Sequence record: SRR22947725_2292 | Direction: 5' to 3' (one strand) | Length of the DNA: 20,000 nt | Shown: in pieces, positions 1 through 15,125 of the stretch | Numbering within the stretch: position 1 is the first letter of the stretch | Layout: every line of letters starts with the position of its first letter | Program-made: the position numbers and the translations under genes | Notes under the pieces: generated by a model | What the model was told of the DNA's origin: nothing | The model's input: the letters and a program-made list of their open reading frames with translations, nothing else | Databases searched by the model: none

Positions 1-1020
1 AAGGTATGCCCTCCTGGAGCGGCAACACCAGCTCCTATAGCCGCCTCTACTGCGGCGACAAATCCTGCCCAGAGCGACGAAATCATCTTTGCCTCAAAGG
101 AAATGGCCAAAACAATGGAAGTTGCCACCATGGTATCGGCCAACGACTTTTCAAGTTTATTAATCACTGGCGAAAGTGGTAGTGGTAAAGGCATGCTTTC
201 ACGAGCTATTCACAAAATGGGGAGCCGCTCAAAGAAACCATTTGTTGAAATCAACTGTTCTGCATTACCGGCAAACCTGATCGAGTCTGAACTTTTCGGC
301 CATAAACGCGGTGCTTTTACCGATGCCAAAGAAGATAAAGTCGGCCTCATTGAACTCGCGAATAAAGGAACCTTGTTCCTCGATGAAATTGGCGATATGG
401 ACATTAAACTTCAGAGTAAACTATTAAAAGCCATTGAAGAAAGATCCTTCCGCCGGATAGGCTGTACGAATAATATTAAAGTAGACATCCAAATCATTGC
501 CGCTACAAACGCCAATATTTTTGAATCAATCAATAATGGTGATTTCAGGCTTGACCTTTATTATCGCCTCAGTGTCATTCCCGTTGAATTGGCCCCATTG
601 AGAGATAGGAAAGATGACATACCTGCACTTTGTGAACACTTTATAAAAATGTATTCGCGGAAATTTGGTAAGAAGATTACTGGCTTTACTGACAATGCGA
701 TCAAAACCATGAATGCCTATCCATGGCCTGGTAACGTCCGTGAGCTTAGTAATGTTGTTGAACGCGGCTGTATTTTAGCGAAAGACAAATCCATAGATGC
801 CGACCTACTAATGCTCCCCAAAGATGCTTCTTTAATCCCAACGGGCCCTGGTGGTGGATCTAAGCCTACAGAAGTAATGACTTTAGCGCAGGCAGAGGAA
901 CACGCCATAGAGGTAGCAGTCGCCAAAGCTGACGGCAATAAAAATGAAGCGGCTCGCTTATTAGGTGTCCACAGGACGACTCTTTATAAAAAACTCGAAG
1001 AGTACAAAATCGATATTTAA
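1..1020 (+). CDS. Sigma54-dependent transcriptional activator (NtrC/AtoC-family bEBP), 5'-truncated by window edge
   Basis: Frame is open from base 1 (KVCPPGAATPAPIAAST... Pro/Ala linker), so ATG103 is internal. Walker A GESGSGKG, ESELFGH, GAFTDA loop, Walker B LFLDEIGD, FRLDLYYRL, WPGNVREL, C-terminal Fis-type HTH (GNKNEAARLLGVHRTTLYKKL). Confidence 0.95.
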   Translation, partial: KVCPPGAATPAPIAASTAATNPAQSDEIIFASKEMAKTMEVATMVSANDFSSLLITGESGSGKGMLSRAIHKMGSRSKKPFVEINCSALPANLIESELFGHKRGAFTDAKEDKVGLIELANKGTLFLDEIGDMDIKLQSKLLKAIEERSFRRIGCTNNIKVDIQIIAATNANIFESINNGDFRLDLYYRLSVIPVELAPLRDRKDDIPALCEHFIKMYSRKFGKKITGFTDNAIKTMNAYPWPGNVRELSNVVERGCILAKDKSIDADLLMLPKDASLIPTGPGGGSKPTEVMTLAQAEEHAIEVAVAKADGNKNEAARLLGVHRTTLYKKLEEYKIDI

Positions 1021-1039
1021 TAAAGATTATAGTTTCAAT

Positions 1040-1069
1040 AAAAAAGCGCCTTGAGAAAGGCACTTTTTT
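1040..1069. terminator. Bidirectional intrinsic terminator between convergent bEBP and nitrate reductase genes
   Basis: AAAAAAG-C-GCCTT-gaga-AAGGC-A-CTTTTTT: stem-loop flanked by A6 and T6; the C1047/A1062 mismatch becomes a G-U pair on the minus-strand transcript. Confidence 0.85.
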
Positions 1070-1071
1070 AT

Positions 1072-3282
1072 TTATTCCCAGTACTCGGCTTTCTTAATCT
1101 TCACCGCACATGCTTTGTATGACGGTTGACGTGAGTACTTATCAAATGACGGAAAGGTCAACATATTGGTCTCAATGTAATGCATCGGCATGAAAACCTG
1201 GCCTTCTTTGACATGGTAACTAGGGCAAGCACGCGCTTTAATTTTTCCGCGGCGTGAAATAACCCAAATCCACTCAGAAGGTTCAACTCCCATTTTCCGG
1301 GCTTCTGTAGAATTTATTTCTACATAAACTTCATTCGGATAAAGTTTACGCAAGACTGCCGATTTTTTAGTACGCGTCTGCGTATGCCACTGAGAAGACG
1401 TACCACGACCGGTGAGCAGCCAGTGCTTATATTCTCTACAAGGAGCTTCTAAAGGCTTTCTGGGCTCTTCAAATAAAAACTTTGCTTTACCGTCTGCATG
1501 ATAAAATTTATTATCCTCAAATAAACGGCGTTCACTCACAATAGTCTCTGTACCTTTAGGCAAAGGCCACTGAATACCGCCATTTTCATCAATCATCCGG
1601 TAATCTTTTATACCCGTGATATCACAAGGCTGATCAATAGTACAATCCCGCAACATTTTAAAAACGGCTTCTGCCGAAGTCCACTTCTTAAAAAGATCAG
1701 CACAACCCCAATATTCCGCGACGAGCTTAAAAATATTAAAATCTGAAAGAGCTTCACCTGGTGCTTTTCGCACTTTTTTAACTAAGCCGAAACGGCGCTC
1801 TGAGTTCACAAAAGTACCATCTTTCTCAGCCCAAGCGGCGGCTGGCAACACCAAGTCTGCTAATTCAGCAGTTTCTGTCGTATGGTACATGTCTTGAACT
1901 ACGAGGTAATCGAGATTCTTTATAACATCTCTAAAGCCCTTTTGGTTAATCCATGAGTGAGCCGAGTTCGTAGCGATAACCCACAAACCTTTAATTTTCC
2001 CTTGGGAAATTCCTTCGATAATTTGATCGTAAGCCCAACCGAGCTTATCAGGTATAACAGCAGGATCTATCTCTAAAATATTCGCTACTTTTTCGCGATG
2101 TTCCGGATTTGAAAAGTCATGGCCACCAAGAAGATTCGTAGTATTACTGAATAAGCGCGAACCCATTGCATTACATTGACCAGTAATCGAATTTGCGCCA
2201 GTTCCTGGACGACCGATATTGCCCGTCATTAAAGCAATATTTATCATGGACTGGGCAACACGGACACCTTCATGACTCTGGTTAACTCCCATAGTCCACC
2301 AAAATGAGACCTTTTTACCAGCTGCAATAGTATCTACTAATTTCGCTAGTTCCTCTGGGGGAATACCTGATTCTTCTTCAACGACTTCAGGAGTATATTT
2401 TTTAACGTGTTCAACAAAGTCATCGAAACCATTAGTATACTTATCAATATAGTCTTGCTTGAAACAACCTTTTTCAATGAGCTGATTAGCGACTCCGTAG
2501 AAAAAGCTTAAGTCTGACTTCGGGTTAATCGCATAATGTTGAGTTGCCGCTACAGCGGTTTCTGTTTTGCGTGGGTCAACTACAATTATTTCTGGATTAT
2601 TTTTGTTTAAATGAACTCTTTCCCACATGATAGGGTGAGCAATACAAGGGTTGGCTCCCACAAAAACTAAAACATCAGACTCTTCAAAATCTTTATAAGT
2701 ATAAGGAGGAGCATCAAAACCAAAACTTTGCTTGTAAGAAACGACTGCCGTAGCCATACACTGGCGGGTATTGCCATCACCATGGAGCATATTCATACCA
2801 AACTTCGTCAGAGCGCCTAAAAAGGCAAGTTCTTCTGCAACGATCTGACCGGTACCAAGAAAAGCTACAGATTCATTACCGTACTTCTCTTGTATACCTT
2901 TAAAGTTATCGACCATGCGCGTCATGGCGCTATCCCAAGAAGTCTGAATCAATTTACCAGAAGAGCTTCTACGGTAGGGCTTAGTAGCTCGGTCATCAGC
3001 CTTTAATGCCGCAATAGCCTCCCAGCCTTTCGGACAGGCCATACCAAGATTGACTGGGTAATCTGTATCTGGTGTTAAATTAATCGCTTCACCATCTTTC
3101 AGGTGTAGATTTAAACCACAACCCGTAGAGCAATACCCACAAACAACAGTGGTTGTTGCGTCAGGCTTCATTTTCTCAGGAACTTTACCAAGACCAAAAT
3201 TACCCGGTTCCAATAGTAGTTCTCTAGTTAAAGGGCCATTCCACTGACGAATAACTTCGCTAATTTTTTCTTTTAAGGCCAT
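1072..3282 (-). CDS. nasA: Molybdopterin (Mo-bisPGD) nitrate reductase catalytic subunit, NasA/NarB-like
   Basis: [4Fe-4S] motif CGYCSTGCG...CPKG; Mo-ligand region NTRQCMATA (Cys-Met as in Nap/Nas); [30 protein letters not shown]-terminal TGR...WHTQTRT molybdopterin-dinucleotide domain. No twin-arginine signal and no C-terminal BFD [2Fe-2S] extension. Confidence 0.85.
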
Positions 3283-5000
3283 TATGCACCTCCTGGCATT
3301 TTCTTACTCACCACAGCGGCAAAGAATAGGAATCTCTCACAGAATTCGCCAAACAAAGCTAAGATGAAAGAGGCCACTGATAATCCTAGCATCATTGCTA
3401 AGTTACCTTCTGGTGGTGGCTCTTGAATAGATATTACACAAATCATTAATGGTAGGATAAGACCACCCACTAAACCACATGCATAACGAAGTTTTGTGGC
3501 AATTGGCAGGTGATTAATCATAACCAACGCTGAGCGTTTAAACATCGAATATGTTTGATCTTTTAGGTGCCTAAATATACTGGCTTCCCAAGCTAATTTA
3601 GCCGTAAATGCACAAATCATTAATAGCGATAGCTTCGAAGTATAAACCTTAGTTACTAGTTCACCGTGCTCAGGCTGCATAAAGTACACGCCCGCCAAAG
3701 ATGAGGTCATAATTGTTGCTAAACCGAGCGTTAATGACGTACCGAAAAACTTCAAGCCTGTTATCGAGCCACGCCACAGTTCTTTCTTACAGTCATCATA
3801 AATCATCACTGAACAGATGACACCAAGAATACCACTAAAAGCGACACCCACGCCAATTAATTCACGGAAGTGAACACTTTTGATAAAGCCGGGCAAACTA
3901 ATACCAGTTAAAGACTCTATATGGGCAACCCAAAACAATGCGGCATAAGTCGATGCAAAACCTGCGAATAAATTGAAGGCAAGAATTTCACGACTCAACC
4001 ACGATTTCTTTAAACCCAAAAGAGCTCTAAAAGCATATTGAGGGCGGCCAAGGTGCAGTACCGAAACACTTAAAGCCAGAAGACCAAGGCACAATGCCAC
4101 AATCGAGTGCAAAGGCTGCATTTCGCTAATGAGTGGATTACTTTGCAGATAATTCATTAAAATATCAACACAAAAAGCACCAACTGAAAGCTGTGTTAAA
4201 ACAAGCATGCCTACTAATGGTGGGTGTGAATGCTGAGGTTGAAGTGAATAATAGTCACTCCCCAACATATTCTTTTGAAGGGGTTTACTACTTTCAAAAA
4301 TCGTTGTCGGCTGAGTAAACTCGGATGACGGTGCCCCTGGAACAACTGCACTATCCTGTGAATCTTCCAAGATGCGATCTTTATCAACAATTTGAATGCT
4401 AATAGCACTCGTCGGACATGATTGAACACATGCAGGTGCTTCACCTACTTCTAAACGATGCGTACACATGTCACACTTTCTAACAATTCCTAAACGCTTA
4501 TTATAGGTAGGGACTTCGTAAGGGCATTTTAAGATACAGTACTGACAGCCAATACACTGATCATCTAAATGCTTGACAATACCAGTAACTTCATCTTTGT
4601 CGTAAGCATTAACCGGGCATCCATTGGAGCAGGCCGGATCTAAGCAGTGATGGCAAGCACTCGTAACGTGTTGCTGATTAGCTTCTTCACGGTTTCCACC
4701 TCTTAATAAGCCTACATTACGCCAAGTCTCATCTTCATCGAGACCATTAAGATTGTGACAAGCCGTTACACAGGCTTTACAACCTGTACAGGCATCTAAA
4801 TTAACCTTGAACGCGTACTGTTGCCCTTCCTTAGGCTGACTTAATGGAATAAGGCTTTCATAATATTGCTTTTGAACAGGGATCTGTTTATTCTCATGCT
4901 TCTGCGAGAATTCTTCAACGGCAGTCAATTCTTGCTGTTCTTGCAGCAAATTGGTCAACAGCGCCTGTTTATCTACTAAAACTTTTCCTTCGGAATTCAT
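3282..5000 (-). CDS. Fused DmsB/NrfC-type 4x[4Fe-4S] ferredoxin + DmsC/YnfH-family membrane anchor
   Basis: Four Cys groups ([41 protein letters not shown]...ACVQSCP), then about 8 hydrophobic helices with DmsC motifs [15 protein letters not shown]...SWLSRE and [10 protein letters not shown]. Stop overlaps the nasA start (TAATG at 3280-3284 on the minus strand). Confidence 0.9.
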
Positions 5001-5035
5001 ACATACTCTTAAAATTATTCAATAGTCTGGTATTT

Positions 5036-5051
5036 TGTAGGCATAATTACA
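5036..5051. promoter_or_regulatory. Putative NtcA/CRP-family operator TGTA-N8-TACA
   Basis: TGTA-GGCATAAT-TACA, 35 bp upstream of the nitrate reductase operon start codon; matches the GTA-N8-TAC consensus. Confidence 0.4.
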
Positions 5052-5128
5052 TCGCCTTTCATTACAAATCAATATTCAATTGTATATTTGAATGTTATTT
5101 TTGTAATATTTAATCATAAATTTACGAT

Positions 5129-5148
5129 AATGTAATAAATATCACATT
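5129..5148. promoter_or_regulatory. Putative CRP/FNR-family operator TGTAA-N6-TCACA
   Basis: AATGTAAT-AAAT-ATCACATT: 8-bp arms with one mismatch; one mismatch from the CRP consensus TGTGA-N6-TCACA. Confidence 0.4.
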
Positions 5149-5227
5149 GTAAAGTAAGCTTTTTTACCCAAAAGAAAGTAAGATGAGAAAATTGCGTTAG
5201 TTTTGTTTATAAAAATAAGGAAGGGAC

Positions 5228-6031
5228 ATGAATAAAGTGAATAAAATTATTTTTGGATGCTTAGGTACTCTAATAATCGCCATAATATTAAGCTGGTTTG
5301 CACTCAATTGGCTTAAATCTAAAACTATTAACTTTATTGCTGAAACAAGTCACGAAGTCCTAAGTGACAGTCTCAAGCAATCCAAACTCCCGAAAGATCA
5401 AAAAAAGGCAATACTTACAGTCTCTCAAAGGCTACTCGACGCTGTTTCATCTGGGGAGATTGACTTTAATTTTGATGGCAGTTTTAAAAATCCCGAAGCT
5501 GCAACTGAAGCTATAGCAGTCGCCGGCAAAGAGGCATTTGCCTCAATTGAACATAATAAAAGTGAACAAATCATCTTTAATCAACAGATCGATAGGCTCC
5601 GCCAAAATTTTCTTGCCGATAACATCACTCCAGATGAAACAACCCAAATGGCTGAGCAGCTCGCTAAGGGCCCATTTGGCCTCAGCTTTACAGCTTGGGC
5701 AATACACAGCCACTATGTAATACCCTCTACTCTTTCTAATAATGAAAAAGAAAACGCTAAAACAACTGTCAATACTCTTATCAATGGTATAAACAACAAA
5801 CTTATAAATATAAAAGATATAGAAACTATCCTAGAGCCCTATCAAGAAAAAAATACTGATGGCCAAAAATCCTTAAAGAGCCAACTTAGCGATAATGAAA
5901 TCAAAAATATTTTTAGCGAATTCAATAAATTAATTACTAACAACAAAGTTACTCCTCCTGAGACTTCTCTGAGTATTGCTAATGAATTAAAAAAGGCTTT
6001 TGATGACGCTGGCATGGATAAACTAAAATAA
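5228..6031 (+). CDS. Hypothetical membrane-anchored helical-repeat protein
   Basis: RBS AAGGAAGGGA; N-terminal hydrophobic helix (IIFGCLGTLIIAIILSWFAL); 3-4 degenerate ~27-aa helical repeats; no recognised catalytic motif. Confidence 0.8.
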   Translation: MNKVNKIIFGCLGTLIIAIILSWFALNWLKSKTINFIAETSHEVLSDSLKQSKLPKDQKKAILTVSQRLLDAVSSGEIDFNFDGSFKNPEAATEAIAVAGKEAFASIEHNKSEQIIFNQQIDRLRQNFLADNITPDETTQMAEQLAKGPFGLSFTAWAIHSHYVIPSTLSNNEKENAKTTVNTLINGINNKLINIKDIETILEPYQEKNTDGQKSLKSQLSDNEIKNIFSEFNKLITNNKVTPPETSLSIANELKKAFDDAGMDKLK

Positions 6032-6150: not shown

Positions 6151-6672
6151 ATGCAAGACGCCCAACATGGAGAATTCATCAAAAACTTCGCTGCCATTCA
6201 GCCAGCGCTGCACCGCTATATATGCTCTTTACTGCCTAATTTTAATGAAGCTGATGACATTTTACAGGAAGTCGCCATAATTTGCTGGGAGAAATACGAT
6301 AACTATAATCGAACACAAGCCTTTCAGGCTTGGGCTTTTGGTATTGCCAGAAATAAAGTCCTCCATTCTAAAAGGCGTTTTTTAAGAACACAGAATCTGA
6401 TGGCTAAAGCCTTAGAAGAAAAAGCAGAACAGCACTTCGCTCATAGCTCTTTAAATCATCAAGAAGAGAAACAGGACGCTCTACTGAACTGTATTGAGAA
6501 TCTCGATCACAAACAACAAAATGTCCTTCTCCTGCGGTACAAAAATAAGCTTTCAAGTGATTCCATCGCACAACAACTCAAGCGTAGCTCAGAACAAATA
6601 AGAACACAACTTTTTAGACTTCGCAGTAGTCTCAAAAGCTGTATCAATAATAAACTTATGAGTTCCAAATAA
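6151..6672 (+). CDS. ECF sigma-70 factor (Planctomycete/Verrucomicrobia type)
   Basis: Region 2 (LHRYICSLLP..EADDILQEV..W...F.AWAFGIARNKV) and region 4 (LLLRY...IAQQL....IRTQLFRLRSSLKSC); RBS GAGGA; TAATG overlap with the next gene. Confidence 0.93.
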   Translation: MQDAQHGEFIKNFAAIQPALHRYICSLLPNFNEADDILQEVAIICWEKYDNYNRTQAFQAWAFGIARNKVLHSKRRFLRTQNLMAKALEEKAEQHFAHSSLNHQEEKQDALLNCIENLDHKQQNVLLLRYKNKLSSDSIAQQLKRSSEQIRTQLFRLRSSLKSCINNKLMSSK

Positions 6673-8558
6673 TGGATGCTTTTCATAAAATTGATCGCTT
6701 AGTTGAGAAATGCCTTCATAACGAAGCCAATACATCTGAATATGACGAGCTCCAAGAATTGTGTAGCCAGAACAAGGAAAACTTAAAGCACTATTTAGAG
6801 GCAATTGATCAGCAAGTCACTCTCAGAGAAGTTCATGAAGATTTATTTATTATAGGGCAATCTCTTAACACGAGTAGTTCAAAAAAAATAAAGTTCCCCA
6901 TATGGTTACTACTCACTTCCGCTATTGTTAGCTTTGTTATAATCAACATTTTCTTTAACCCTAAAACGAACTCACACACTCTGGTTATATCGAAACGCTC
7001 TTATGGGCTTTCATTTATTCGGCAAAATGGTGAAGTAGAGAATATTCATGGCCTACAATTAAAAGAGCAGGACTTTATTGAAGTTGATGAAAAAGGTGAA
7101 CTCTGGCTCAAAATCAATAGCCAAAGCCAACTCTATATTGCCGGTAATAGTCTCTTAAAAGTTCAAAGTCACTCTCGAGAAGACTTTGTCCTTATAAAAG
7201 GGAGTCTAAATGGTGAAGTTAACCTACTCGATGAAAATTTTATCTTCATCACACAGGACTTAGAAATAAAGGTCTCCAAAGCCACTTTCTCTCTTAATCA
7301 AGAAGGGGAAAACTCCTCCTTAAAAGTCTATAGCGGCGAACTACAATTGACTCATTTAAAAACAGGAGAATCTTTAATTCTTAAAGAAGGCAATAGTTAT
7401 CAGAGCCAATCTCGAAAAATTAACGAAATTCAAGTGCCCTCTACACCTTCACTTTTCCCTGTACTAGAAAATGGCCTTAAATATACCTACTTTCAACTTC
7501 AGCAAAATGGCAAACCTGACTTCAAGAGAATTATCGATCAGGGCATTACGAACAAATTAGCAGTTAAGCGTGGAGCTCATGAAGGCTTCGTTCACTTTCA
7601 GCATAATATTCACAGTCATATAAGCTCTAGAGATTTTGCGATGAAATTTTCTGGTTTCTTTAAAGCCGAAGAAACTAAAATCTACACGTTTAAGATTAGC
7701 GGTATCACTCCTTCAGAACTTAAAATAAACAATTCCAAAGCCTACCTTACCGATATTGATCAAGAAAGGGTTTTGACGCTTAAGCTCGAAAAAGGCATTC
7801 ACCCTGTGGAATTATCAACCATCGGTATTGTCGAAGATGATCATGATGGTCATAGCGTCCAAATCGAAATGAAAAATAATAAAGATGCTTTCGAGCCTAT
7901 ACCTGAAAAACTTTTATTCTTCAGTAATCCAATACCACTGCCAAAAGTATTTAGTCAAGGCAGTATCAATAGTGGTTTAGTGGCTCATTTACCTCTTAAA
8001 GGCACCTTTAAAGATAGCTTAAATCACCTCGACGCTGCCGCAAAAGGAAACCCACTTTTTGTTAAGGACAAAAAATTCGGAACTGTACTGGATTTTGATG
8101 GCAAAGACGATTATCTCATTCACATGCCTGTTGATAAACTCGGCATGAACCAAAGCTACACAACCAGTTGCTGGGTCAAACTAAAAAAAATAAACCACAT
8201 TGATCAAGTCCTATTTTCAAACCAAAATGGCGCGGATAGTACTCTTGTCTTATTAATACGACGTATGTATCCTTACCATGCTCATTATGGCAATGACACC
8301 ATCGCCGACGAAAAATTGGAAAGTGACAAATGGAATCACATCGTTTTCCGTTATCACCAAGGAAAGCAAAGTATATTTGTAAATGGAAAACTCGCAGTAG
8401 TTTCCCATAATCATAATATACTTGCATCAAACCAACCGTTACAGGTTGGCCGTTGGGGAGAAAGATATTTACGCGGTAAACTTCACGATATTCGCTTCTA
8501 TAACACTGCCTTGCATGCTGAAGATATTCTCCGTTTATATGAAAAGACTACTAACTAA
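6672..8558 (+). CDS. Anti-sigma factor: cytoplasmic N-domain, TM, FecR-like domain, PA14-like domain, LamG/ConA-like domain
   Basis: TM at aa ~75-95; FecR-like (LIKGSL...ATFSL...LKVYSGEL); PA14-like (NGLKYTYF...FAMKFSGFF...YTFKI...GIHPVEL...IPEKLLF); LamG (LDFDGKDDY, YTTSCWVK, WNHIVFRY, IFVNGKL, LHDIRFYNTAL). Translationally coupled to the ECF sigma. Confidence 0.82.
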   Translation: MDAFHKIDRLVEKCLHNEANTSEYDELQELCSQNKENLKHYLEAIDQQVTLREVHEDLFIIGQSLNTSSSKKIKFPIWLLLTSAIVSFVIINIFFNPKTNSHTLVISKRSYGLSFIRQNGEVENIHGLQLKEQDFIEVDEKGELWLKINSQSQLYIAGNSLLKVQSHSREDFVLIKGSLNGEVNLLDENFIFITQDLEIKVSKATFSLNQEGENSSLKVYSGELQLTHLKTGESLILKEGNSYQSQSRKINEIQVPSTPSLFPVLENGLKYTYFQLQQNGKPDFKRIIDQGITNKLAVKRGAHEGFVHFQHNIHSHISSRDFAMKFSGFFKAEETKIYTFKISGITPSELKINNSKAYLTDIDQERVLTLKLEKGIHPVELSTIGIVEDDHDGHSVQIEMKNNKDAFEPIPEKLLFFSNPIPLPKVFSQGSINSGLVAHLPLKGTFKDSLNHLDAAAKGNPLFVKDKKFGTVLDFDGKDDYLIHMPVDKLGMNQSYTTSCWVKLKKINHIDQVLFSNQNGADSTLVLLIRRMYPYHAHYGNDTIADEKLESDKWNHIVFRYHQGKQSIFVNGKLAVVSHNHNILASNQPLQVGRWGERYLRGKLHDIRFYNTALHAEDILRLYEKTTN

Positions 8559-8592
8559 TTGTAGGCGACTTATAATATAAATTTCATGTAAC

Positions 8593-9378
8593 TTATGGTA
8601 AAGTTGAAGCTATGCCTCGTACAAGAGCCCCTTTAACTGCTTCTGTAGCTTCGACTAATTTCAAATTTAACTTTTTTGCTGAAACGATAAAACGTTCTTC
8701 TTGGTATGCGAAATCCTGCTTCTTTCTATATTCTGTGGCTTCACTATGAGAAATTGACGTTCTACCTGATTCGGCATACTCTCCTTCATTTTTGTAGCTT
8801 GAGCTACCCGAATTAGAACTTTTGGTAGTCGTCTTCCTCGTAGAAACAACCCCTCCTTCAATGCGCTCGCCGACACTTAAGTCAACTACAAAATCGTAAG
8901 AGATAACTCTATTCCTATTATCCATAGCTTTCCCTGCCGCAGCGCCTGCAGCCGCACCGGCACCGGCACCTATAGCTACATTGGTACCTGATCCATCGCC
9001 AAGACTACTCCCCAACAACGCTCCTGCAAGACCACCAACAATTGTCCCGAAAATTGTGCTCCCATAACTCTGGTGCTTCTTTTCTCCGACATACCGTAAA
9101 TCTGCTATTAAAACAAAAGATGCTTCATCTAAATTATGGGTTAATTTATAACCCTGTGAAGTGACTTCTTTTAAAACTGAATTTCTTATGTCAATATCTG
9201 TACCTGAACTATTTCTAAAACGTACAAATGCCAACATATCCTTTGACCCCAAAGGACGCTGTTGAATTTTACCGATGCGCCTCGAGTTGACACTCATCTC
9301 CTTGACTGAGGGATCCATAAATCCCGTACATGAGCATAAGAAAAGGACCATCAAAACAGATATAAACTTCTTCAACAT
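8593..9378 (-). CDS. traT: TraT-like (complement-resistance family) outer-membrane lipoprotein with glycine zipper
   Basis: Lipobox LCSC after a hydrophobic signal; FVRFRNSSG...GYKLT.N.DEA.F.L.A segment typical of the TraT family; Gly/Ala zipper GGLAGALLG...GAGAGAAAGAAAG; RBS TGGAGA. Confidence 0.72.
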   Translation of the reverse strand: MLKKFISVLMVLFLCSCTGFMDPSVKEMSVNSRRIGKIQQRPLGSKDMLAFVRFRNSSGTDIDIRNSVLKEVTSQGYKLTHNLDEASFVLIADLRYVGEKKHQSYGSTIFGTIVGGLAGALLGSSLGDGSGTNVAIGAGAGAAAGAAAGKAMDNRNRVISYDFVVDLSVGERIEGGVVSTRKTTTKSSNSGSSSYKNEGEYAESGRTSISHSEATEYRKKQDFAYQEERFIVSAKKLNLKLVEATEAVKGALVRGIASTLP

Positions 9379-9490
9379 CTTTCATCTCCAGTTAATAGAC
9401 ACAAAAAGGCCTACATATTAATAATGTATCTCTAATTAGTATAATCTCTTCTTAATAGGGTAATCTCATACTCTATTGAAATATTTAAAA

Positions 9491-9805
9491 CTATTTTATG
9501 TACGAGCAACAATAATCAGTTACTTCTTTAATAACTAATTTAAATTTAGAGTCTGCGGGAACATTAAACGACTGACCGCCTTTAATCGCCTGCCAATCAT
9601 CAGAACCAGGTAATAAGACATCTAAATCACCTGCCATGATCTCCATTATTTCTGCTTCTGCAGTACCAAATTCATAGTCGCCAGGCATCATAATCCCAAG
9701 CGTCTTTGTAGTACCATCTGTAAACTCAACTGTTCTGCTAGTTACTTTACCATCGAAATAAACATTGGCAGCTTTAATAATTGTTACATTTTCAAATTTT
9801 GACAT
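9491..9805 (-). CDS. ppnP: Pyrimidine/purine nucleoside phosphorylase PpnP (DUF1255/YaiE, cupin fold)
   Basis: [28 protein letters not shown]...EIMEI..G, F.VPADS.F and C-terminal DYCCSY are characteristic of PpnP; RBS AAGGA. Confidence 0.93.
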
Positions 9806-9843
9806 CTTCTTTTCCTTTATTTAAAATTTATTCAAAATTGTAG

Positions 9844-10159
9844 TTGGGAATTCTTTTTTTTCGAGAAAATGTTACAAATAAAAATCAGGAACCTATCGAT
9901 TTTAGTATTGATCAATGCCCAACATGTTCAGGAGTTTGGTTTGACACCAATGAATGGGAAACTCTTAAATTGCATGAATTGTCGAATAAGCTACACTTGA
10001 TATTCACAGGAACTTGGCAAAAATATAAAACGATGGCTAAGTGAAAAAAGAAAAATTGACATCTAAATGAATAAGTTTGGTAAAGATAATCTCAAGAAAT
10101 TAAACGATATCAAATCTTGGTTAAATCAACAAGAACATAAGACGCTTATGCTAGCTTAA
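9844..10159 (+). pseudogene. Decayed zf-TFIIB (zinc-ribbon) domain gene
   Basis: Frame 1 gives IDQCPTCSGVWFDTNEW..LK...L...LHLIFTGTWQ. After an A-run near 10019-10023, frame 2 continues NIKRWLSEKRKIDI*MNKFGKDNLKKLNDIKSWLNQQEHKTLMLA* with an internal TAA at 10064-10066. The first CxxC pair and a credible start are missing. Confidence 0.7.
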
Positions 10160-11209
10160 AGAAGCAATAATTTTCGCTGCTATTTTATCTAAAGGTAACA
10201 CTTCACTAACTGCATCGGCTTTAATTGCCATATTCGGCATGCCAAAAATAGTGCATGTTTCTTCATCTTGAGCTACTGTATATGCTCCTGAATCATAGAG
10301 CATCTTTAAACCTTTGGCTCCATCAGCGCCCATTCCTGTCATAATTATACCAAGAGTATTATCGCCAACTTCTTGGGCTGCCGATCGAAACAAGTAATCT
10401 ACTGCAGGGCGACAATGGTTCTCTGGAGGAGCATCACAAGATATTTTAGCATAGTATTTACCCGATCTCTTTTCGACACCCATTTGAGTCTGACCAGGAG
10501 CAAAATAAACATAACCCGGAGATAACTCTTGATCATCTGTCGCTTCAACAACTGACAACTGACTCTTTTTATTTAGTGAATTTGCTAATGAAGTAATAAA
10601 TAATGGTGGCATATGCTGAACAATGACCACTGGGGCAGAAAGAGTTGAAGGTAATTGAGGAATAACCTGGCTTAAAGCATTTGGGCCACCGGTAGAAAGT
10701 CCAATACAAACCAAATCCACCTTTTTAGAGTAAGGCGAAGACTTATGCACTATCGCTTTTCTTTCAGCCTGTAAAGTAGAATTTCTATCGCTGATAGGAA
10801 CTAGACCTTGATGAAGAGCGGTCAATAAAGGGGTTAATTGGGCAACCAGTTGATTTTCACTCTCAAACCGATCCTTCCCTTCTGGTTTGGCGATAAAGTC
10901 ATAAGCTCCTAATTCAAGAGCCTTAATAGTTACTGAAGCGCCTACTGTTGTAAATGCACTGCACATAATAACAGCTGGAGATTGACTACTCTTATTTAAT
11001 TTTGTCATAACACCGATCCCATCCATTATCGGCATTTCAACATCTAAAATAACCACATCTGGATTATTGACTCTAATACTAGTGAGTACTTTTTCGCCAT
11101 CGGCAGCTGAACCCGTAATTTCAATCCAAGAGAATGACCGTAGAATTTTTTTCAAAAGTGCGCGATAAACAATTGAGTCATCACCAATTAAAACTTTTAA
11201 TTTTCGCAC
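10151..11209 (-). CDS. cheB: Chemotaxis response regulator protein-glutamate methylesterase CheB
   Basis: REC domain (VLIGDDS, LDVEMPIMDG, FIAKP) + methylesterase with intact Ser-His-Asp triad (GLSTGG, QHMP, TGMGADG); GTG start with RBS AGAGG. Confidence 0.96.
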   Translation of the reverse strand: MRKLKVLIGDDSIVYRALLKKILRSFSWIEITGSAADGEKVLTSIRVNNPDVVILDVEMPIMDGIGVMTKLNKSSQSPAVIMCSAFTTVGASVTIKALELGAYDFIAKPEGKDRFESENQLVAQLTPLLTALHQGLVPISDRNSTLQAERKAIVHKSSPYSKKVDLVCIGLSTGGPNALSQVIPQLPSTLSAPVVIVQHMPPLFITSLANSLNKKSQLSVVEATDDQELSPGYVYFAPGQTQMGVEKRSGKYYAKISCDAPPENHCRPAVDYLFRSAAQEVGDNTLGIIMTGMGADGAKGLKMLYDSGAYTVAQDEETCTIFGMPNMAIKADAVSEVLPLDKIAAKIIASLS

Positions 11210-11219
11210 ACAAGCCTCT

Positions 11220-11522
11220 TTATCGGGGATTAACTTGGAAGTATTTATCTAAACGCATCAATTTAAACATATGCATAATATCTTCAGAAGTATTCATCAA
11301 GCTTAGGCTGCCCGACTTTTTCTTAAGTGAATTCTGGATTGAAATTAGCAAGCTAATTCCTGTTGAGTCAACCATTTCAACTTTAGCTAAATCTAACTCT
11401 ACCGCATTTAAGCCATCATCCATCTGACCAAGTATTTCACTCTTCACTCCATTCACTGAGGCGGCAGTCAAATCCGCATCCAGATTTAATAATAAAGTGT
11501 TCTCATTCCTCTGACTATCCAT
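11220..11522 (-). CDS. STAS-domain anti-anti-sigma factor (SpoIIAA/RsbV-like)
   Basis: LDLAKVEMVDSTGISLL (DSxG phospho-Ser motif) and FKLMRLDKYF; start overlaps cheW end by 8 nt. Confidence 0.9.
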   Translation of the reverse strand: MDSQRNENTLLLNLDADLTAASVNGVKSEILGQMDDGLNAVELDLAKVEMVDSTGISLLISIQNSLKKKSGSLSLMNTSEDIMHMFKLMRLDKYFQVNPR

Positions 11523-11973
11523 TACTCATCTCCCCTATTGATACCTCATCAACCTTTGCTATTCCTTCAACATTTAATACTGTGATAAGCTCACCGTCTA
11601 ATTCAAAGACTCCTTTAATATGATCTGCATCCATCCCATGTGGAACTGCGGGCGATGACTCTACACTACTTTGTGGTTGCTCTATCACATCCAATACTTC
11701 AGTGATCATAAAACCAATATGCTCTGTATCATGTTTAACAACGATCGTTGCCATCTGCTCTGCTTCAGTGCCCATATTAAAAAACTTCTGCAAATCAATA
11801 ACTGAAACAATTTCGCCTCTTAAATTAAGGACACCGCAGACATAAGTATCTGATCTGCAAATGCTTGTTAAATTCTTAGTGTCCCTAATAATCTCCTGAA
11901 CATCTAAACAATCCAAAGCGCAAACCAAATCAACCACTTTGAAAATTATGTAATTTTTATAAATCTTAGCCAT
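11515..11973 (-). CDS. cheW: Chemotaxis adaptor CheW
   Basis: VQEII, GVLNLRGEIVSVIDL, IGFMITEVLDV, IKGVFELDGELITVLNV. Confidence 0.93.
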   Translation of the reverse strand: MAKIYKNYIIFKVVDLVCALDCLDVQEIIRDTKNLTSICRSDTYVCGVLNLRGEIVSVIDLQKFFNMGTEAEQMATIVVKHDTEHIGFMITEVLDVIEQPQSSVESSPAVPHGMDADHIKGVFELDGELITVLNVEGIAKVDEVSIGEMSNG

Positions 11974-11984
11974 TATAATATCCT

Positions 11985-14900
11985 TTAGACGCTTACTTGG
12001 TCGTATAAATAATGCTTCAAATTCTGTAAGATCTCTTCTCTATCGAGCTTAATAAGGTATTCATTAAAACCTAAGCTTTTACCCTTCTCTAAAGCTGAGT
12101 CTCCAGAAACTGATGTCACTGCGATAACAGGTAAATTTTTAAGAGCCTGGTCCCTACGGATTTCCTGGATTAGTTCAAAACCATCCATTACTGGCATTTC
12201 AATATCTGCTAAGACTAAGCTTATATCTACTTTTGAACGTAAAACATCTAGAGCTTCTTTACCATCCATCGCTATCTCAGTCACATAACCGGCCTCTTCA
12301 ATAAAAGAGCTAATTTGATTAACAAAAAACTTTGAATCATCTACAACTAAAATCTTATGATTAACTTCTGCTTTTTGAACATTTATACCACGCTTATCAA
12401 CCCACTCAGGCTTCTTCTCCGCAACAATTCCAAATAAATCAATAAGTAGAGTTAAATGATCATCAATAAACGCTGATCCAAATATTCCTGGTTGCCTATG
12501 AGTCGCTTCATCGAACTCAACAATAATTTCGACCGAATCAATAATTTCTTTAACAAGTAAACCTAATTGACGCCCAAGGGCTTCAAAAATAACAATTGAG
12601 CATTGGCCATCCAACTCTGCCTTTGAAATGTTTGCTACATCTTCCACTCTAAAAAGAGCTATACTTTTGCCATTATAATCATAGGTAACTTGTGTCCCAA
12701 CCTTCTTTATTCTTTCTGCAGGGACACGCTCTATTCTGATTATATTACTTATAGGAATTGCCAGCCTTTCACTCGTGCCATTATTAACGATTAGTAATTT
12801 CTGTAGCTCTCCTCGATCATCGCCCTTCTCACTTTTCTCTTCATCGTGATCTTCTTGAGCGATATGAGAAATGTTTAGCTCAGCAGCAATACCAGATATA
12901 TCGAATATCGGAGCTATATCACCATTACCCAGAATAGTCGCACCAGCATAAATCTTAAGAGGCTTTAAGTGCCGACCAAATGGCTTAACGACAATTTCAG
13001 GTGAATCTAGAGTTTGATCAACAATTATACCATACTTTAACTCGCCAACTGACACTACGAGAATGTGAAGTGGCTGCGTAAAACCAAAACTATCATCATC
13101 CATATCAATTAATGTTGGTTCATCAAGAAGAAAATCATCTCCTCTAACTATTTGAATAAGCTCATCCATAAAACGAAGAACCAAAGAAGCTCCTATATGC
13201 TGTATCTTCTCTCGTACTTCTTTTACCGGTACTCTGACTATTTGCAGTAAATTCACCTGGGGTACCGCATAAGTCTTATTACTTACAGACACTAATAAGC
13301 TGGGCATGATTGCCAAAGTAAGAGGTAGACTAATCTTTAGATGTGTGCCTTGCCCTGGACGTGAATTTAAATCAACGACACCGCCTAATTTCTTCAAATT
13401 AGTCAGTACGACATCCATGCCAACACCTCGACCTGAAATCTCAGTCACTTCATCGGCTGTAGAAAAACCAGGTTTAAAAATAAGATTGGTAATTTCCTTG
13501 TCCGTCATACGCTCTAAGGCTTGCTCTGTAACAACCCCAGTCTCAAGTGCTTTGGCAGAAACTCGTTCTACATTTACACCACGGCCATTATCTATAATCT
13601 CAACAACAACTTTACCTGCTTCGTGAAAGGCTTTTATTGTCAAAGTGCCTTTCGCAGACTTACCTGCTTTTATTCTTTCCTGAGGAGTCTCCAAGCCATG
13701 ATCCATTGAATTGCGAACTATATGGGTCAATGGATCACCGATCGACTCAATGATCGTTTTATCCATCTCTACATTTTCACCCTCAATAATAAGCTCAATA
13801 TCCTTGCCAAGGTCATTACATAAATCGCGCACAATCCGTTTAAATTTATTAAATACACTGCCAACTGGCTGCATACGCGTTTTCATGATGGCTTCTTGAA
13901 GAGAAGAAGTCACTATATTGATTTGCTGCGAAGCAATCTTCATTGAAGTAACTTCATCATGCTCTGAAGCTTGCAGTAACTGATTTCGAGCTAAGACCAA
14001 TTCTCCAGCAAGAGACATAAGGTTTTCCAATAAAGAAATACTAACTCTCAAGTTTTCATTAGAACCAGTCTTCTTAACAATAGCCGGTGACTTTTTTTTA
14101 GCCTGTGGAGCTGCTAATGCTGTTTTCACCGTTGCAGGAGGAGCTGATGCTACCGGCTGAGGTGTTAATTTAACATCTTCCTTTGTTGGTTGGGCAGAAT
14201 TTAATAATTGTTCAACTAAATCATCCGTGGATGGGGCAGATAAAGGAGTCGCTTGATCTAAAGCTGCCGTCAATTCATCCAATTCATTAGCTGTCACCGA
14301 ATCGTTTACCTCAACAGAGTTTCTAGCTTCAGGGTTGATCTCATTAATCGGCTGCCTTTGATCATTGAAAGTCGTAATACTGCCATTTTCTATATCAAAA
14401 AACTCAAAGACCATATCAGGCTCTAAAACAGTCGATACTAACACATAAAAAGGTAAAGACACCTTACTAAAATTCTCTAAATCTGGAACATGCTCAAAGT
14501 CTACTTTACTTTCGACTATATAACAAAGTTGGACCAGCTCTTCAATTACCACCTGTGGCTGCTTTCCCTTTTCCTCCACATCTTTAAGAAGGTCATATTT
14601 CAAAAGGTATAGATTCGGCCCGCCTTTCAATTTATTCTCGCAATCAACCAAATCTTTATTATCAACGACAAAAATAAGATCTCCTTCTTTAGAAGAAATC
14701 TCTATTTGTCCTTCTTTAGCGGTAGAATTTGAAGAAGCCCCCTCCCCAGATTCAACAGACTCTAATTTTTTCAAAGAATCTGAAATATCGTAATCGTCCA
14801 TAGCCTGAGGATTATTAATCATCGCAACTAGGTGATCAATAGCTTCAAGTAAACTCTGAACTATGACTGGTGTTGGCACCAGCTGCCATTTGCGAATTTT

Positions 14901-15125
14901 ATCCAAAATGCTTTCCGCAACGTGAGTTAGATCCTTTACCTTAGTCAATCCAAAAAAGCTCGAGCCACCTTTTATTGTGTGCATAGCCCTAAAAACTTTA
15001 TTAACCTGATCTACATCAATATCAGCCCCGGCTTTCTCTATCGCTAACAAATCATCTTCAATACCTTCTAGATGCTCTAATGACTCTTCCAGAAAAAGGT
15101 CGAGAATCTCATCATCTTCATCCAT
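11985..15125 (-). CDS. cheA: Hybrid CheA histidine kinase (Hpt - P2-like - dimerisation - HATPase - CheW - CheW - REC)
   Basis: Hpt FRAMHTIKGGS; dimerisation LRVSISLLENLMSLAGELVLARNQL; HATPase HIVRNSMDHG, DNGRG, FKPGFSTA, SGRGVGMDVV; two CheW-like domains; C-terminal REC (ILVVDDS, ADIEMPVMDG, AVTS, LIK). RBS GAGGAG. Confidence 0.96.
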   Translation of the reverse strand: MDEDDEILDLFLEESLEHLEGIEDDLLAIEKAGADIDVDQVNKVFRAMHTIKGGSSFFGLTKVKDLTHVAESILDKIRKWQLVPTPVIVQSLLEAIDHLVAMINNPQAMDDYDISDSLKKLESVESGEGASSNSTAKEGQIEISSKEGDLIFVVDNKDLVDCENKLKGGPNLYLLKYDLLKDVEEKGKQPQVVIEELVQLCYIVESKVDFEHVPDLENFSKVSLPFYVLVSTVLEPDMVFEFFDIENGSITTFNDQRQPINEINPEARNSVEVNDSVTANELDELTAALDQATPLSAPSTDDLVEQLLNSAQPTKEDVKLTPQPVASAPPATVKTALAAPQAKKKSPAIVKKTGSNENLRVSISLLENLMSLAGELVLARNQLLQASEHDEVTSMKIASQQINIVTSSLQEAIMKTRMQPVGSVFNKFKRIVRDLCNDLGKDIELIIEGENVEMDKTIIESIGDPLTHIVRNSMDHGLETPQERIKAGKSAKGTLTIKAFHEAGKVVVEIIDNGRGVNVERVSAKALETGVVTEQALERMTDKEITNLIFKPGFSTADEVTEISGRGVGMDVVLTNLKKLGGVVDLNSRPGQGTHLKISLPLTLAIMPSLLVSVSNKTYAVPQVNLLQIVRVPVKEVREKIQHIGASLVLRFMDELIQIVRGDDFLLDEPTLIDMDDDSFGFTQPLHILVVSVGELKYGIIVDQTLDSPEIVVKPFGRHLKPLKIYAGATILGNGDIAPIFDISGIAAELNISHIAQEDHDEEKSEKGDDRGELQKLLIVNNGTSERLAIPISNIIRIERVPAERIKKVGTQVTYDYNGKSIALFRVEDVANISKAELDGQCSIVIFEALGRQLGLLVKEIIDSVEIIVEFDEATHRQPGIFGSAFIDDHLTLLIDLFGIVAEKKPEWVDKRGINVQKAEVNHKILVVDDSKFFVNQISSFIEEAGYVTEIAMDGKEALDVLRSKVDISLVLADIEMPVMDGFELIQEIRRDQALKNLPVIAVTSVSGDSALEKGKSLGFNEYLIKLDREEILQNLKHYLYDQVSV

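Follow-up and report, generated by a model that had tools for sequence, protein, structure and literature searches.

The DNA analysed here is a stretch of 20,000 nucleotides from sequence record SRR22947725_2292 (the window, by which we mean this whole stretch), and our subject is a two-gene operon on its minus strand. The upstream gene, P0001 (3282..5000), encodes a 572-aa fusion of an iron-sulfur (Fe-S) protein with a DmsC-type membrane anchor, as read from the list of open reading frames (ORFs) and the translation; the downstream gene, P0002 (1072..3282), encodes a 736-aa molybdenum-bis(pyranopterin guanine dinucleotide) (Mo-bisPGD) catalytic subunit of the Nas/Nap type, as read from the ORF list, Pfam, NCBIfam and alignments. 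We propose, at a probability of roughly 0.7, that the two proteins form a membrane-bound, cytoplasm-facing, non-electrogenic menaquinol:nitrate oxidoreductase serving nitrate assimilation. The enzyme would combine a Nas-type catalytic subunit with a quinol module of the complex iron-sulfur molybdoenzyme (CISM) type, inverted like that of SoeABC; to judge from the genomes surveyed this architecture is widespread, and it has been in print once. An earlier note, made from the sequence alone, had proposed a cytoplasm-facing quinol:nitrate oxidoreductase, and that proposal is supported in silico by topology, absence of a twin-arginine translocation (Tat) signal, active-site signatures and gene context.

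P0001 consists of a conserved hydrophilic N-terminal extension (residues 1-60), a ferredoxin domain (61-206, nt 4383-4820), a linker and an eight-helix DmsC-type anchor (259-572, nt 3285-4226). Pfam recognizes Fer4_11 at 112-203 (82.6 bits) and DmsC (PF04976) at 261-560 (40.1 bits, cut-off 22.3), while the best NCBIfam match is DmsB (TIGR02951) with 127.9 bits, below its cut-off. The ferredoxin domain contains 16 cysteines in four [4Fe-4S] motifs (71-81, 116-128, 149-159 and 176-195), every one of them invariant in 65 sequences, and this four-cluster module matches FdnH and PsrB; the motifs and the Pfam matches agree with the fusion of a four-cluster ferredoxin to a DmsC-type anchor that the earlier note had described. 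By hhalign, P0001 262-562 aligns to Escherichia coli DmsC 7-277 with 95.5% probability over all eight helices. The alignment sets HLGRP on HLGSP, equating H316 with H65, and WLSRE on LSNE, equating E338 with E87, so that the loop at 3987..4055 (minus strand), running from His316 (4053-4055) to Glu338 (3987-3989), would be the equivalent of the menaquinol site of DmsC. The two residues are 22 positions apart, the spacing that had been pointed out as that of H65 and E87. Geijer and Weiner are said to have described in 2004 a role for E87 in the menaquinol site. H65 is needed for quinol oxidation, according to the part of PMC8076601 that deals with DmsC. For topology and conservation we used a family set of 85 members covering several phyla; H316, G318, R319, P320, R325, S333, W334, S336, R337 and E338 are invariant in all 85. 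An AlphaFold2 model of P0001, made with the 65-sequence alignment, has eight long helices, with predicted local distance difference test scores of 84-98 in the membrane part. Foldseek searches with this model matched the Fe-S half to PsrB/FdnH and the anchor half to ActC/PsrC; a sequence search of the PDB with P0001 found no DmsC-type chain.

The orientation of the anchor is suggested by its charges. With helix limits set by the E. coli DmsC alignment and the AlphaFold2 model, we counted 17 Lys and Arg residues in the four Fe-S-side loops and the tail of P0001 versus 3 in the four opposite loops, and all the loop strings that the earlier note had quoted for this asymmetry are present in the translation. 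The 85 family members average 14.9 on the Fe-S side versus 2.8 on the opposite side, with the excess on the inner side in each of them. E. coli DmsC has the reverse bias, with four Lys and Arg on the side of the H65/E87 loop and eight in the alternate loops. This opposite bias suggests that the arrangement of anchor and Fe-S module, with the quinol site next to the latter, is retained, and that the anchor lies the other way up in the membrane. The positive-inside rule thus supports a predicted N-in topology with the Fe-S domain and H316/E338 on the cytoplasmic side, and the inverted DmsC anchor first proposed for P0001 is predicted for all 85 members. Neither P0001 nor P0002 has an RR motif or hydrophobic leader at its N-terminus, again in line with the earlier description, and in related loci no Tat-like motif was found in any of 79 Mo subunits or 79 Fe-S/anchor proteins. 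Both proteins do have conserved hydrophilic N-terminal extensions (P0001 residues 10-55, LLxEQQxLTAV...KYYxxLIPL; P0002 residues 10-45), neither of them a signal peptide; docking is a possible function.

The catalytic subunit P0002 shows the Pfam domains Molybdop_Fe4S4 (44-87), Molybdopterin (98-523) and Molydop_binding (621-726), with no domain after the last. The N-terminal [4Fe-4S] ligands are C48, C51, C55 and C83, and the presumed Mo ligand is Cys175 (nt 2758-2760). At the active site P0002 and its family have Cys-Met at the ligand segment, TGQCNAMG at a second segment and WWTMGVNQS at a third. Annotated Nas enzymes and E. coli NapA align here with Cys-Met, (S/L)TGQPxA(M/C)G and WTMGxNQ, whereas E. 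coli FdhF has selenocysteine-His (U-H), RGQNNVQG and WGMGVTQF. Alignments of P0002 to solved formate dehydrogenases give the same contrast: the Arg of their RGQ is Thr in P0002, and the ligand Cys is followed by Met, not His. The claim that P0002 is NasA-type rather than a formate dehydrogenase is supported by these signatures (C-M, TGQxNAMG, WTMGxNQS). Residue 370 of P0002 (about 2173-2175) is Cys in the family and in a sister molybdoenzyme from Cetobacterium, and is at least 90% conserved in 28 sequences; the position is Pro in E. coli NapA and in four of the six aligned annotated Nas rows, and Ala in the Halobaculum row.

Identity of P0002 to annotated plasmid-borne Nas genes is 32-36%. We inferred a maximum-likelihood phylogeny of 28 rows, 19 of them from the P0002 family, and all 19 form one clade with 99/100 support; its sister is the Cetobacterium molybdoenzyme, with 44% identity. 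The long branches are those of E. coli FdhF, E. coli NapA and Halobaculum NasA. In Cetobacterium the sister gene lies in a plasmid operon (L130 4007-8724) together with genes for a 135-aa dicluster ferredoxin, a flavin adenine dinucleotide (FAD) oxidoreductase and a TDT-family transporter.

The two window genes overlap at a TAATG stop/start (3280..3284, minus strand; context ...GCATAATGGCC..., with TAA at 3284-3282 and ATG at 3282-3280), which we read as translational coupling of P0001 and P0002; the coordinates, order and shared base of the two ORFs are all as first described. The stop codon of P0002 is followed by a hairpin with a U-run (1037..1072, core 1046-1063) whose two flanks are an A-run and a T-run. 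Its folding energy is -18.6 kcal/mol (z -7.4, with none of 200 shuffles equally good), and it is predicted to be a two-way intrinsic terminator common to the operon and a convergent sigma-54 regulator gene. The 16 ORFs of the window that were scanned against Pfam include no diaphorase, nitrite reductase or transporter, nor any nitrogen-oxide gene besides the pair; the operon therefore appears to end as the earlier note had it, at a terminator and without these partners.

We infer complex formation from the invariant gene order and the coupling, and the quinol donor, the nitrate substrate, the orientation and the lack of charge separation are likewise deduced. In the mechanism we envisage, menaquinol would bind the anchor near the cytoplasmic face, at the His316/Glu338 loop; electrons would cross the fused ferredoxin domain by way of its four [4Fe-4S] clusters, reaching first the [4Fe-4S] cluster of P0002 and then the Mo-bisPGD centre at Cys175, which would reduce nitrate to nitrite in the cytoplasm, the nitrite then passing to NirBD. 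Because the quinol would release its protons on the same side as proton-consuming nitrate reduction, the enzyme itself would be non-electrogenic. The gain over a Nas enzyme dependent on reduced nicotinamide adenine dinucleotide (NADH) would be that NADH electrons first cross a pumping NADH:quinone oxidoreductase.

The pair is not confined to the window. In a locus survey using one genome per species, 590 of 600 candidate stretches were confirmed and the best 80 loci were kept; the source taxa are Poribacteria, Sorangium and other Myxococcota, Planctomycetota, Verrucomicrobiota, Vicinamibacterales and one actinomycete. At 79 of the 80 the Fe-S/anchor gene is followed immediately, and on the same strand, by the Mo gene; the eightieth is cut by a contig end. 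An overlap of 1 or 4 nt joins the two genes at 33 of the 79. Within 10 kb of the pair we found nirB at 62 of the 80 loci, nirD at 60, a narK-like gene (at least 200 bits) at 32, and nirB or narK at 68; several of the remaining loci are short contigs. Outside the Lentisphaera-type lineage, then, the pair sits in nirBD/narK operons, as emerged from the neighbourhood survey that the earlier note had proposed. Fused Fe-S/DmsC proteins number at least 7996 in the protein collection, and there are 296 short DmsC-only matches, mostly from short contigs or marked partial; the fused B-C form is the rule in this family. Sampled genomes carry the family in 44 of 401 cases for Verrucomicrobiota (E<=1e-30) and in 25 of 301 for Planctomycetota (E<=1e-60); the earlier note had mentioned similar gene pairs in genomes of the Planctomycetes-Verrucomicrobia-Chlamydiae (PVC) group.

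Comparison with known systems helps to define what is unusual here. For an inverted DmsC-like anchor in an enzyme that faces inward, the nearest precedent is SoeABC of Allochromatium vinosum and Aquifex aeolicus, which the part of PMC8076601 treating it predicts to face the cytoplasm, with a haem-free DmsC-like anchor that has His65 and is expected to be inverted; the inversion of P0001 is therefore not unprecedented. The pair resembles SoeABC, as described there, in being a cytoplasm-facing CISM with an inverted DmsC-like anchor, a four-cluster subunit and no Tat signal. It differs in that SoeABC has three separate polypeptides and that SoeA oxidises sulfite and reduces quinone, as opposed to the quinol oxidation and nitrate reduction proposed here; the likeness is one of published description, and the context and active-site motifs of the pair point to nitrate. 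With E. coli DmsABC the pair has in common a four-cluster DmsB-like domain and a haem-free DmsC/NrfD-type anchor over eight helices that keeps H65/E87. DmsA, however, is Tat-exported, faces the periplasm and belongs to another clade of catalytic subunits, and DmsB and DmsC are separate; the pair lacks a Tat signal, fuses B to C and reverses the charge bias.

The Nas enzymes (NasA/NasC/NarB) are like P0002 in being cytoplasmic and free of Tat signals, in the N-terminal [4Fe-4S] cluster, in the Cys-Met, TGQxNAMG and WTMGxNQS signatures, in linkage to nirBD and narK (nirB at 62 of the 80 loci elsewhere, not in the window) and, in relatives of the window organism, in an operator common to nirB, narK and nrtA. 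Unlike them, P0002 lacks a partner of ferredoxin or flavodoxin type as well as any diaphorase domain or subunit; the partner conserved with it, at 79 of 80 loci, is the Fe-S/DmsC fusion. P0002 belongs to a clade of its own (99/100) and scores below the curated NasA and NasC cut-offs. NarGHI, too, passes electrons from quinol to nitrate at a cytoplasmic active site and has a four-cluster subunit. Quinol oxidation there takes place at the outer face, on the dihaem cytochrome b NarI, which makes the enzyme electrogenic, and NarG is a type II enzyme of about 1200 aa. The anchor of the pair, in contrast, is DmsC-type and not NarI, and NarG is not among the 25 listed of the 26 NCBIfam matches to P0002. 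NapA has a Tat signal and NapB/NapC or NapGH partners, whereas P0002 has no Tat signal and scores below the NapA cut-offs. The Clostridium ljungdahlii nar cluster, with catalytic, electron-transfer and NADH-oxidase subunits, is the one whose deletion abolishes nitrate reduction, as the relevant part of PMC9124969 has it; the Cetobacterium sister operon resembles it in this three-part make-up. The C. ljungdahlii enzyme differs from the pair in being soluble, with a small dicluster ferredoxin, an FAD subunit and no membrane anchor.

Two papers bear directly on the family. Dedysh et al. 2020 describe in Lacipirellula parvula, which is nitrate-positive by API 20NE, the same operon adjoining NarK and an NAD(P)H nitrite reductase (PMC6995999, in its section on this operon). 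The earlier note had known of no biochemical characterisation, and we too found no biochemistry in the full-text literature searched; the architecture itself, however, had been in print once, in that account of L. parvula. The survey of Wells et al. 2020, in its part on the Fdh/Nas/Aio/Nap clade, reports no member with canonical four-cluster or anchor subunits (PMC7331816). The P0001/P0002 family contradicts that statement, being an exception to it. The published deletions of narB and MSMEG_2237/6816 in Mycobacterium smegmatis (PMC7816997) play no part in our argument.

The window's own lineage gives the pair a different setting. Five Lentisphaera-type genomes contain it, with identities to the window of 71-80% for P0001 and 77-84% for P0002, and in all five it stands alone: two are syntenic with the window and the other three have it between thioredoxin-like, kinase and gyrase genes. 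One of these three (G407, L097 9172-10889) has its Fe-S/anchor gene broken into frames of 459 and 116 aa; one TGA lies within the match, and the Mo gene is intact. Elsewhere in the genomes, NirB, NrfH-NrfA and a NarK-like transporter (288-293 bits, just under the cut-off) are each found in all five, and NirD was seen in two annotated loci. None of the five has an FNT nitrite channel or NarG, and NapA exceeds its cut-off in one. Each has two MqnA/MqnD matches, which imply the futalosine route to menaquinone; the MenA model gave only matches below the cut-off (72-79 bits versus 102), and MqnA/D were used instead. A nirBD-linked NasA-diaphorase fusion occurs in three of the five and is missing from the two nearest relatives of the window, G408 and G409. 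There the sole other P0002-like match is 28% identical; that of G408, which was the one checked, is an FdhF/YdeP protein (941.6 bits). The pair is thus the only nitrate-reduction candidate in the closest relatives. We found no nitrate phenotype for Lentisphaera species in the literature; PMC13526803 contains neither 'nitrate' nor 'nitrite'. An NrtABCD cluster is present in G408 as well, accompanied by a porin-like gene and by genes for a 666-aa flavoprotein and a multihaem cytochrome. The flavoprotein corresponds to the N-terminal half of NirB (FAD/NAD plus BFD [2Fe-2S], with no sirohaem part); in this stretch (L125 1699-4980) its gene stands behind a TTAC-N6-GTAA palindrome and is followed by those for the 424-aa multihaem cytochrome and a Tll0287-like protein.

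The same palindrome ties the solitary pair to nitrogen metabolism. The AT-rich region at 5001..5227 is a divergent promoter region between the operon and a gene at 5228-6031 on the plus strand, and in it lies the palindrome TTACGATAATGTAA (TTAC-N6-GTAA; 5122..5135), 122 nt upstream of the P0001 start. This is the one match to TTAC-N6-GTAA in the 20-kb window, where 0.36 is expected. An alignment of six upstream regions of the pair has a mean column identity of 44% and one common element, this palindrome, which lies 44-122 nt before the start codon at all six Lentisphaera-type loci. We then looked at further loci that had no part in defining it. It is found upstream of nirB in the three genomes whose promoter was examined (1, 2 and 2 sites) and at narK in all five. 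At nrtA and the porin cluster of G408 (L125, 20 kb) there are six sites versus 0.38 expected, a number reached in none of 200 shuffles. Two sites each in G408 and G409 separate the gene for a 783-aa NirA-family/TusA protein from a divergent gene for a GAF/sigma-54 activator. The type III glutamine synthetase (GS-III) gene of G408 has one site 9 nt before its start, and two tandem amtB-glnK pairs in G375 have one site each 231-243 nt before them. No palindrome was found within about 1.5 kb of nrfA in any of the five genomes. The recorded positions are L120 11965; L121 7558, 7703; L122 7357, 7500; L125 272, 302, 5946, 12664, 12693; L126 9765, 9902; L124 10705, 10776; L141 2517; and L146 235, 2522. 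On L124 of G408 the sirohaem protein of the NirA family, with its C-terminal TusA, is encoded at 8149-10500 (minus strand) and the GAF sigma-54 activator at 10832-12385 (plus strand).

By our own arithmetic the chance of a site in a 250-nt AT-rich spacer is about 1%, which puts repeated hits at independent nitrogen-assimilation promoters far beyond chance. The strict form TTACA-N4-TGTAA exceeds its control by 12 to 5 in G408 and 17 to 4 in G375, although some of these sites belong to another, longer palindrome. That element, AG(C/T)ACTTACA-N4-TGTAAGTGCTT, turns up repeatedly between genes in two Lentisphaera-type genomes and looks like a repeated hairpin element; we did not count it as an operator (L136 1925; L145 2857, 3241; L147 2532; L148 2488). 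Strict sites at the 3' ends of convergent genes (L137) or inside genes (L138, L142, L143, L149, L150) were not counted either. Two other readings of the promoter, a CRP-like TGTGA-N6-TTACA site and a sigma-54 promoter, of which none was seen by eye before the operon, were dropped in favour of the palindrome conserved across six loci. We consider TTAC-N6-GTAA (core TTACA-N4-TGTAA) a candidate operator of a global nitrogen regulator, and conclude from the placement of its sites that the orphan operon probably belongs to a nitrogen-assimilation regulon with nirBD, narK, nrtA, amtB-glnK and GS-III, and not with nrfHA. We know of no described nitrogen regulator for the phylum of the Lentisphaera-type genomes, no search aimed at one having been made.

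The rest of the window is unrelated in annotation. Convergent on the operon, 1-1020 (plus strand) is the 3' part of a gene for a sigma-54-dependent response regulator, which in G408 and G409 is full-length (456-460 aa) and comes after two small genes; in G408, the genome scanned, one of these is histidine-kinase-like. The divergent gene at 5228-6031 (plus strand) encodes a protein of 267 aa that has a single hydrophobic helix, at its N-terminus, and matches nothing in Pfam or NCBIfam. G408 has a 42% identical homologue in the same position, which suggests that this gene and the operon have the operator-bearing spacer in common. Beyond it lie an extracytoplasmic function (ECF) sigma factor of the Rhodopirellula/Verrucomicrobium type with a FecR-like protein (PA14, Laminin_G_3) and a CheA-CheW-STAS-CheB cluster (6151-8558 and 10151-15125), and further ORFs encode a TraT-like lipoprotein, Ppnp, Sir2, MgtE and a glycosyltransferase. 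Reads of marine sequencing runs match only small parts of the window. In RNA library X8 two contigs, covering 3066-3216 and 3260-3410, reach at least 99% identity, and X7, possibly an RNA run, gave three of 95-99% identity within 1489-2178; no X7 or X8 contig bridges the P0001/P0002 junction by a 31-letter rule and DNA carry-over is possible, and these matches are no evidence of operon expression.

The same chemistry might instead serve mainly dissimilation in Lentisphaera-type cells, the enzyme being the only source of nitrite for NrfHA or a sink for excess quinol with nitrite export by NarK. NrfH-NrfA and the NarK-like transporter occur in all five relatives while NarG occurs in none and NapA passes its cut-off in just one, and L. 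parvula, which has the operon as well as NrfAH, is positive for nitrate reduction by API 20NE, to go by the strain description in PMC6995999. Yet the pair's palindrome marks nirB, narK, nrtA, amtB-glnK and GS-III and is missing from the vicinity of nrfA, the pair adjoins genes of the cytoplasmic NirBD at 62 of 80 loci elsewhere, and a non-electrogenic enzyme brings no direct energy gain, and we regard a mainly dissimilatory role as unlikely. Of the two roles that the earlier note had offered, then, assimilation is favoured by the operator shared with nitrogen-assimilation genes, and a pure redox sink is the less favoured. The two roles are not mutually exclusive: more ambitiously, the pair may join Nar, Nap and Nas as a fourth kind of nitrate reductase in bacteria, routing assimilatory electrons through the respiratory chain and, as the sole nitrite supplier to NrfHA in Lentisphaera-type cells without Nar or Nap, acting in assimilation and dissimilation alike, a tentative idea for which we would give about one chance in four.

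A soluble donor, ferredoxin or an NAD(P)H flavoprotein, could also feed the four-cluster domain with the DmsC domain as a membrane tether only. The nearest relative does encode the 666-aa flavoprotein with BFD [2Fe-2S] in a nitrate-transport cluster behind the same palindrome, the characterised Nas enzymes all take soluble donors, and Wells et al. 2020, in the part cited, find no four-cluster or anchor partner in the clade (PMC7331816). Invariance of H316, E338 and the surrounding HLGRP...SWLSRE residues in all 85 members across several phyla is hard to square with a passive tether, and a tblastn search of the 80 loci with the flavoprotein matched only the N-terminal half of nirB and no separate diaphorase gene; we judge a mere tether improbable. 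Still harder to credit is a substrate other than nitrate (formate, chlorate, selenate or another oxyanion), to which we assign a very small probability. It would accord with Fdh-alpha as the best NCBIfam model, with formate dehydrogenases as the solved structures nearest P0002 by sequence, with a deep phylogeny that is not settled and with Cys in place of the Nas/Nap Pro in TGQ(C/P)NAMG; but Met rather than His follows the ligand Cys, the Arg of the formate dehydrogenase RGQ is Thr, most loci are linked to nirBD or narK, and the operator is common to nitrogen-assimilation genes.

Several points weigh against the menaquinol:nitrate oxidoreductase that we prefer. P0002 reaches none of the curated NCBIfam cut-offs: its best score is for Fdh-alpha (490.7 bits, below 666), followed by NasA_Halo (442 versus a cut-off of 1000), NasC (413.6 versus 1100) and the NapA models (349.8 and 337 versus 904 and 930). 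The top rank of Fdh-alpha is not diagnostic, and is weak evidence either way, because a canonical 1168-aa NasA-diaphorase fusion behind nirBD in a relative gives the same pattern (Fdh-alpha 575, NasC 559). Deep nodes of the tree do not settle the placement among Nas, Nap and FdhF, and they put the P0002 family neither inside Nas nor with the formate dehydrogenases. The AlphaFold2 model has the Fe-S domain cluster-free and at low confidence, the 666-aa flavoprotein of G408 could be another electron donor, and the nitrite reductases and transporters of the window organism are deduced from relatives only, with protein identities of 80-84%. The loose palindrome is not enriched genome-wide (109 versus 115 for a reversed control in 5.3 Mb), so that its reading as an operator rests on site placement, and AT-rich spacers raise the chance rate. 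Finally, we found no activity, localisation or topology data for any family member in the full-text literature, subscription-only papers aside.

What is new here is that the pair is unlinked in Lentisphaera-type genomes, that the two nearest relatives have no other nitrate-reductase candidate, and that the operon has a candidate operator. The window thus adds a case of the pair standing apart from other nitrate genes, together with a candidate nitrogen-regulon operator. Textbook donors of assimilatory nitrate reductases are soluble only (ferredoxin, flavodoxin, NAD(P)H). If the donor here is quinol, gene-based inventories of the nitrogen cycle would misread these genes wherever they score them as 'nasA', 'napA' or 'formate dehydrogenase iron-sulfur subunit'. 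In many PVC, myxobacterial and acidobacterial lineages of soil and sea, nitrate assimilation and respiration would then draw directly on one quinone pool in competition.

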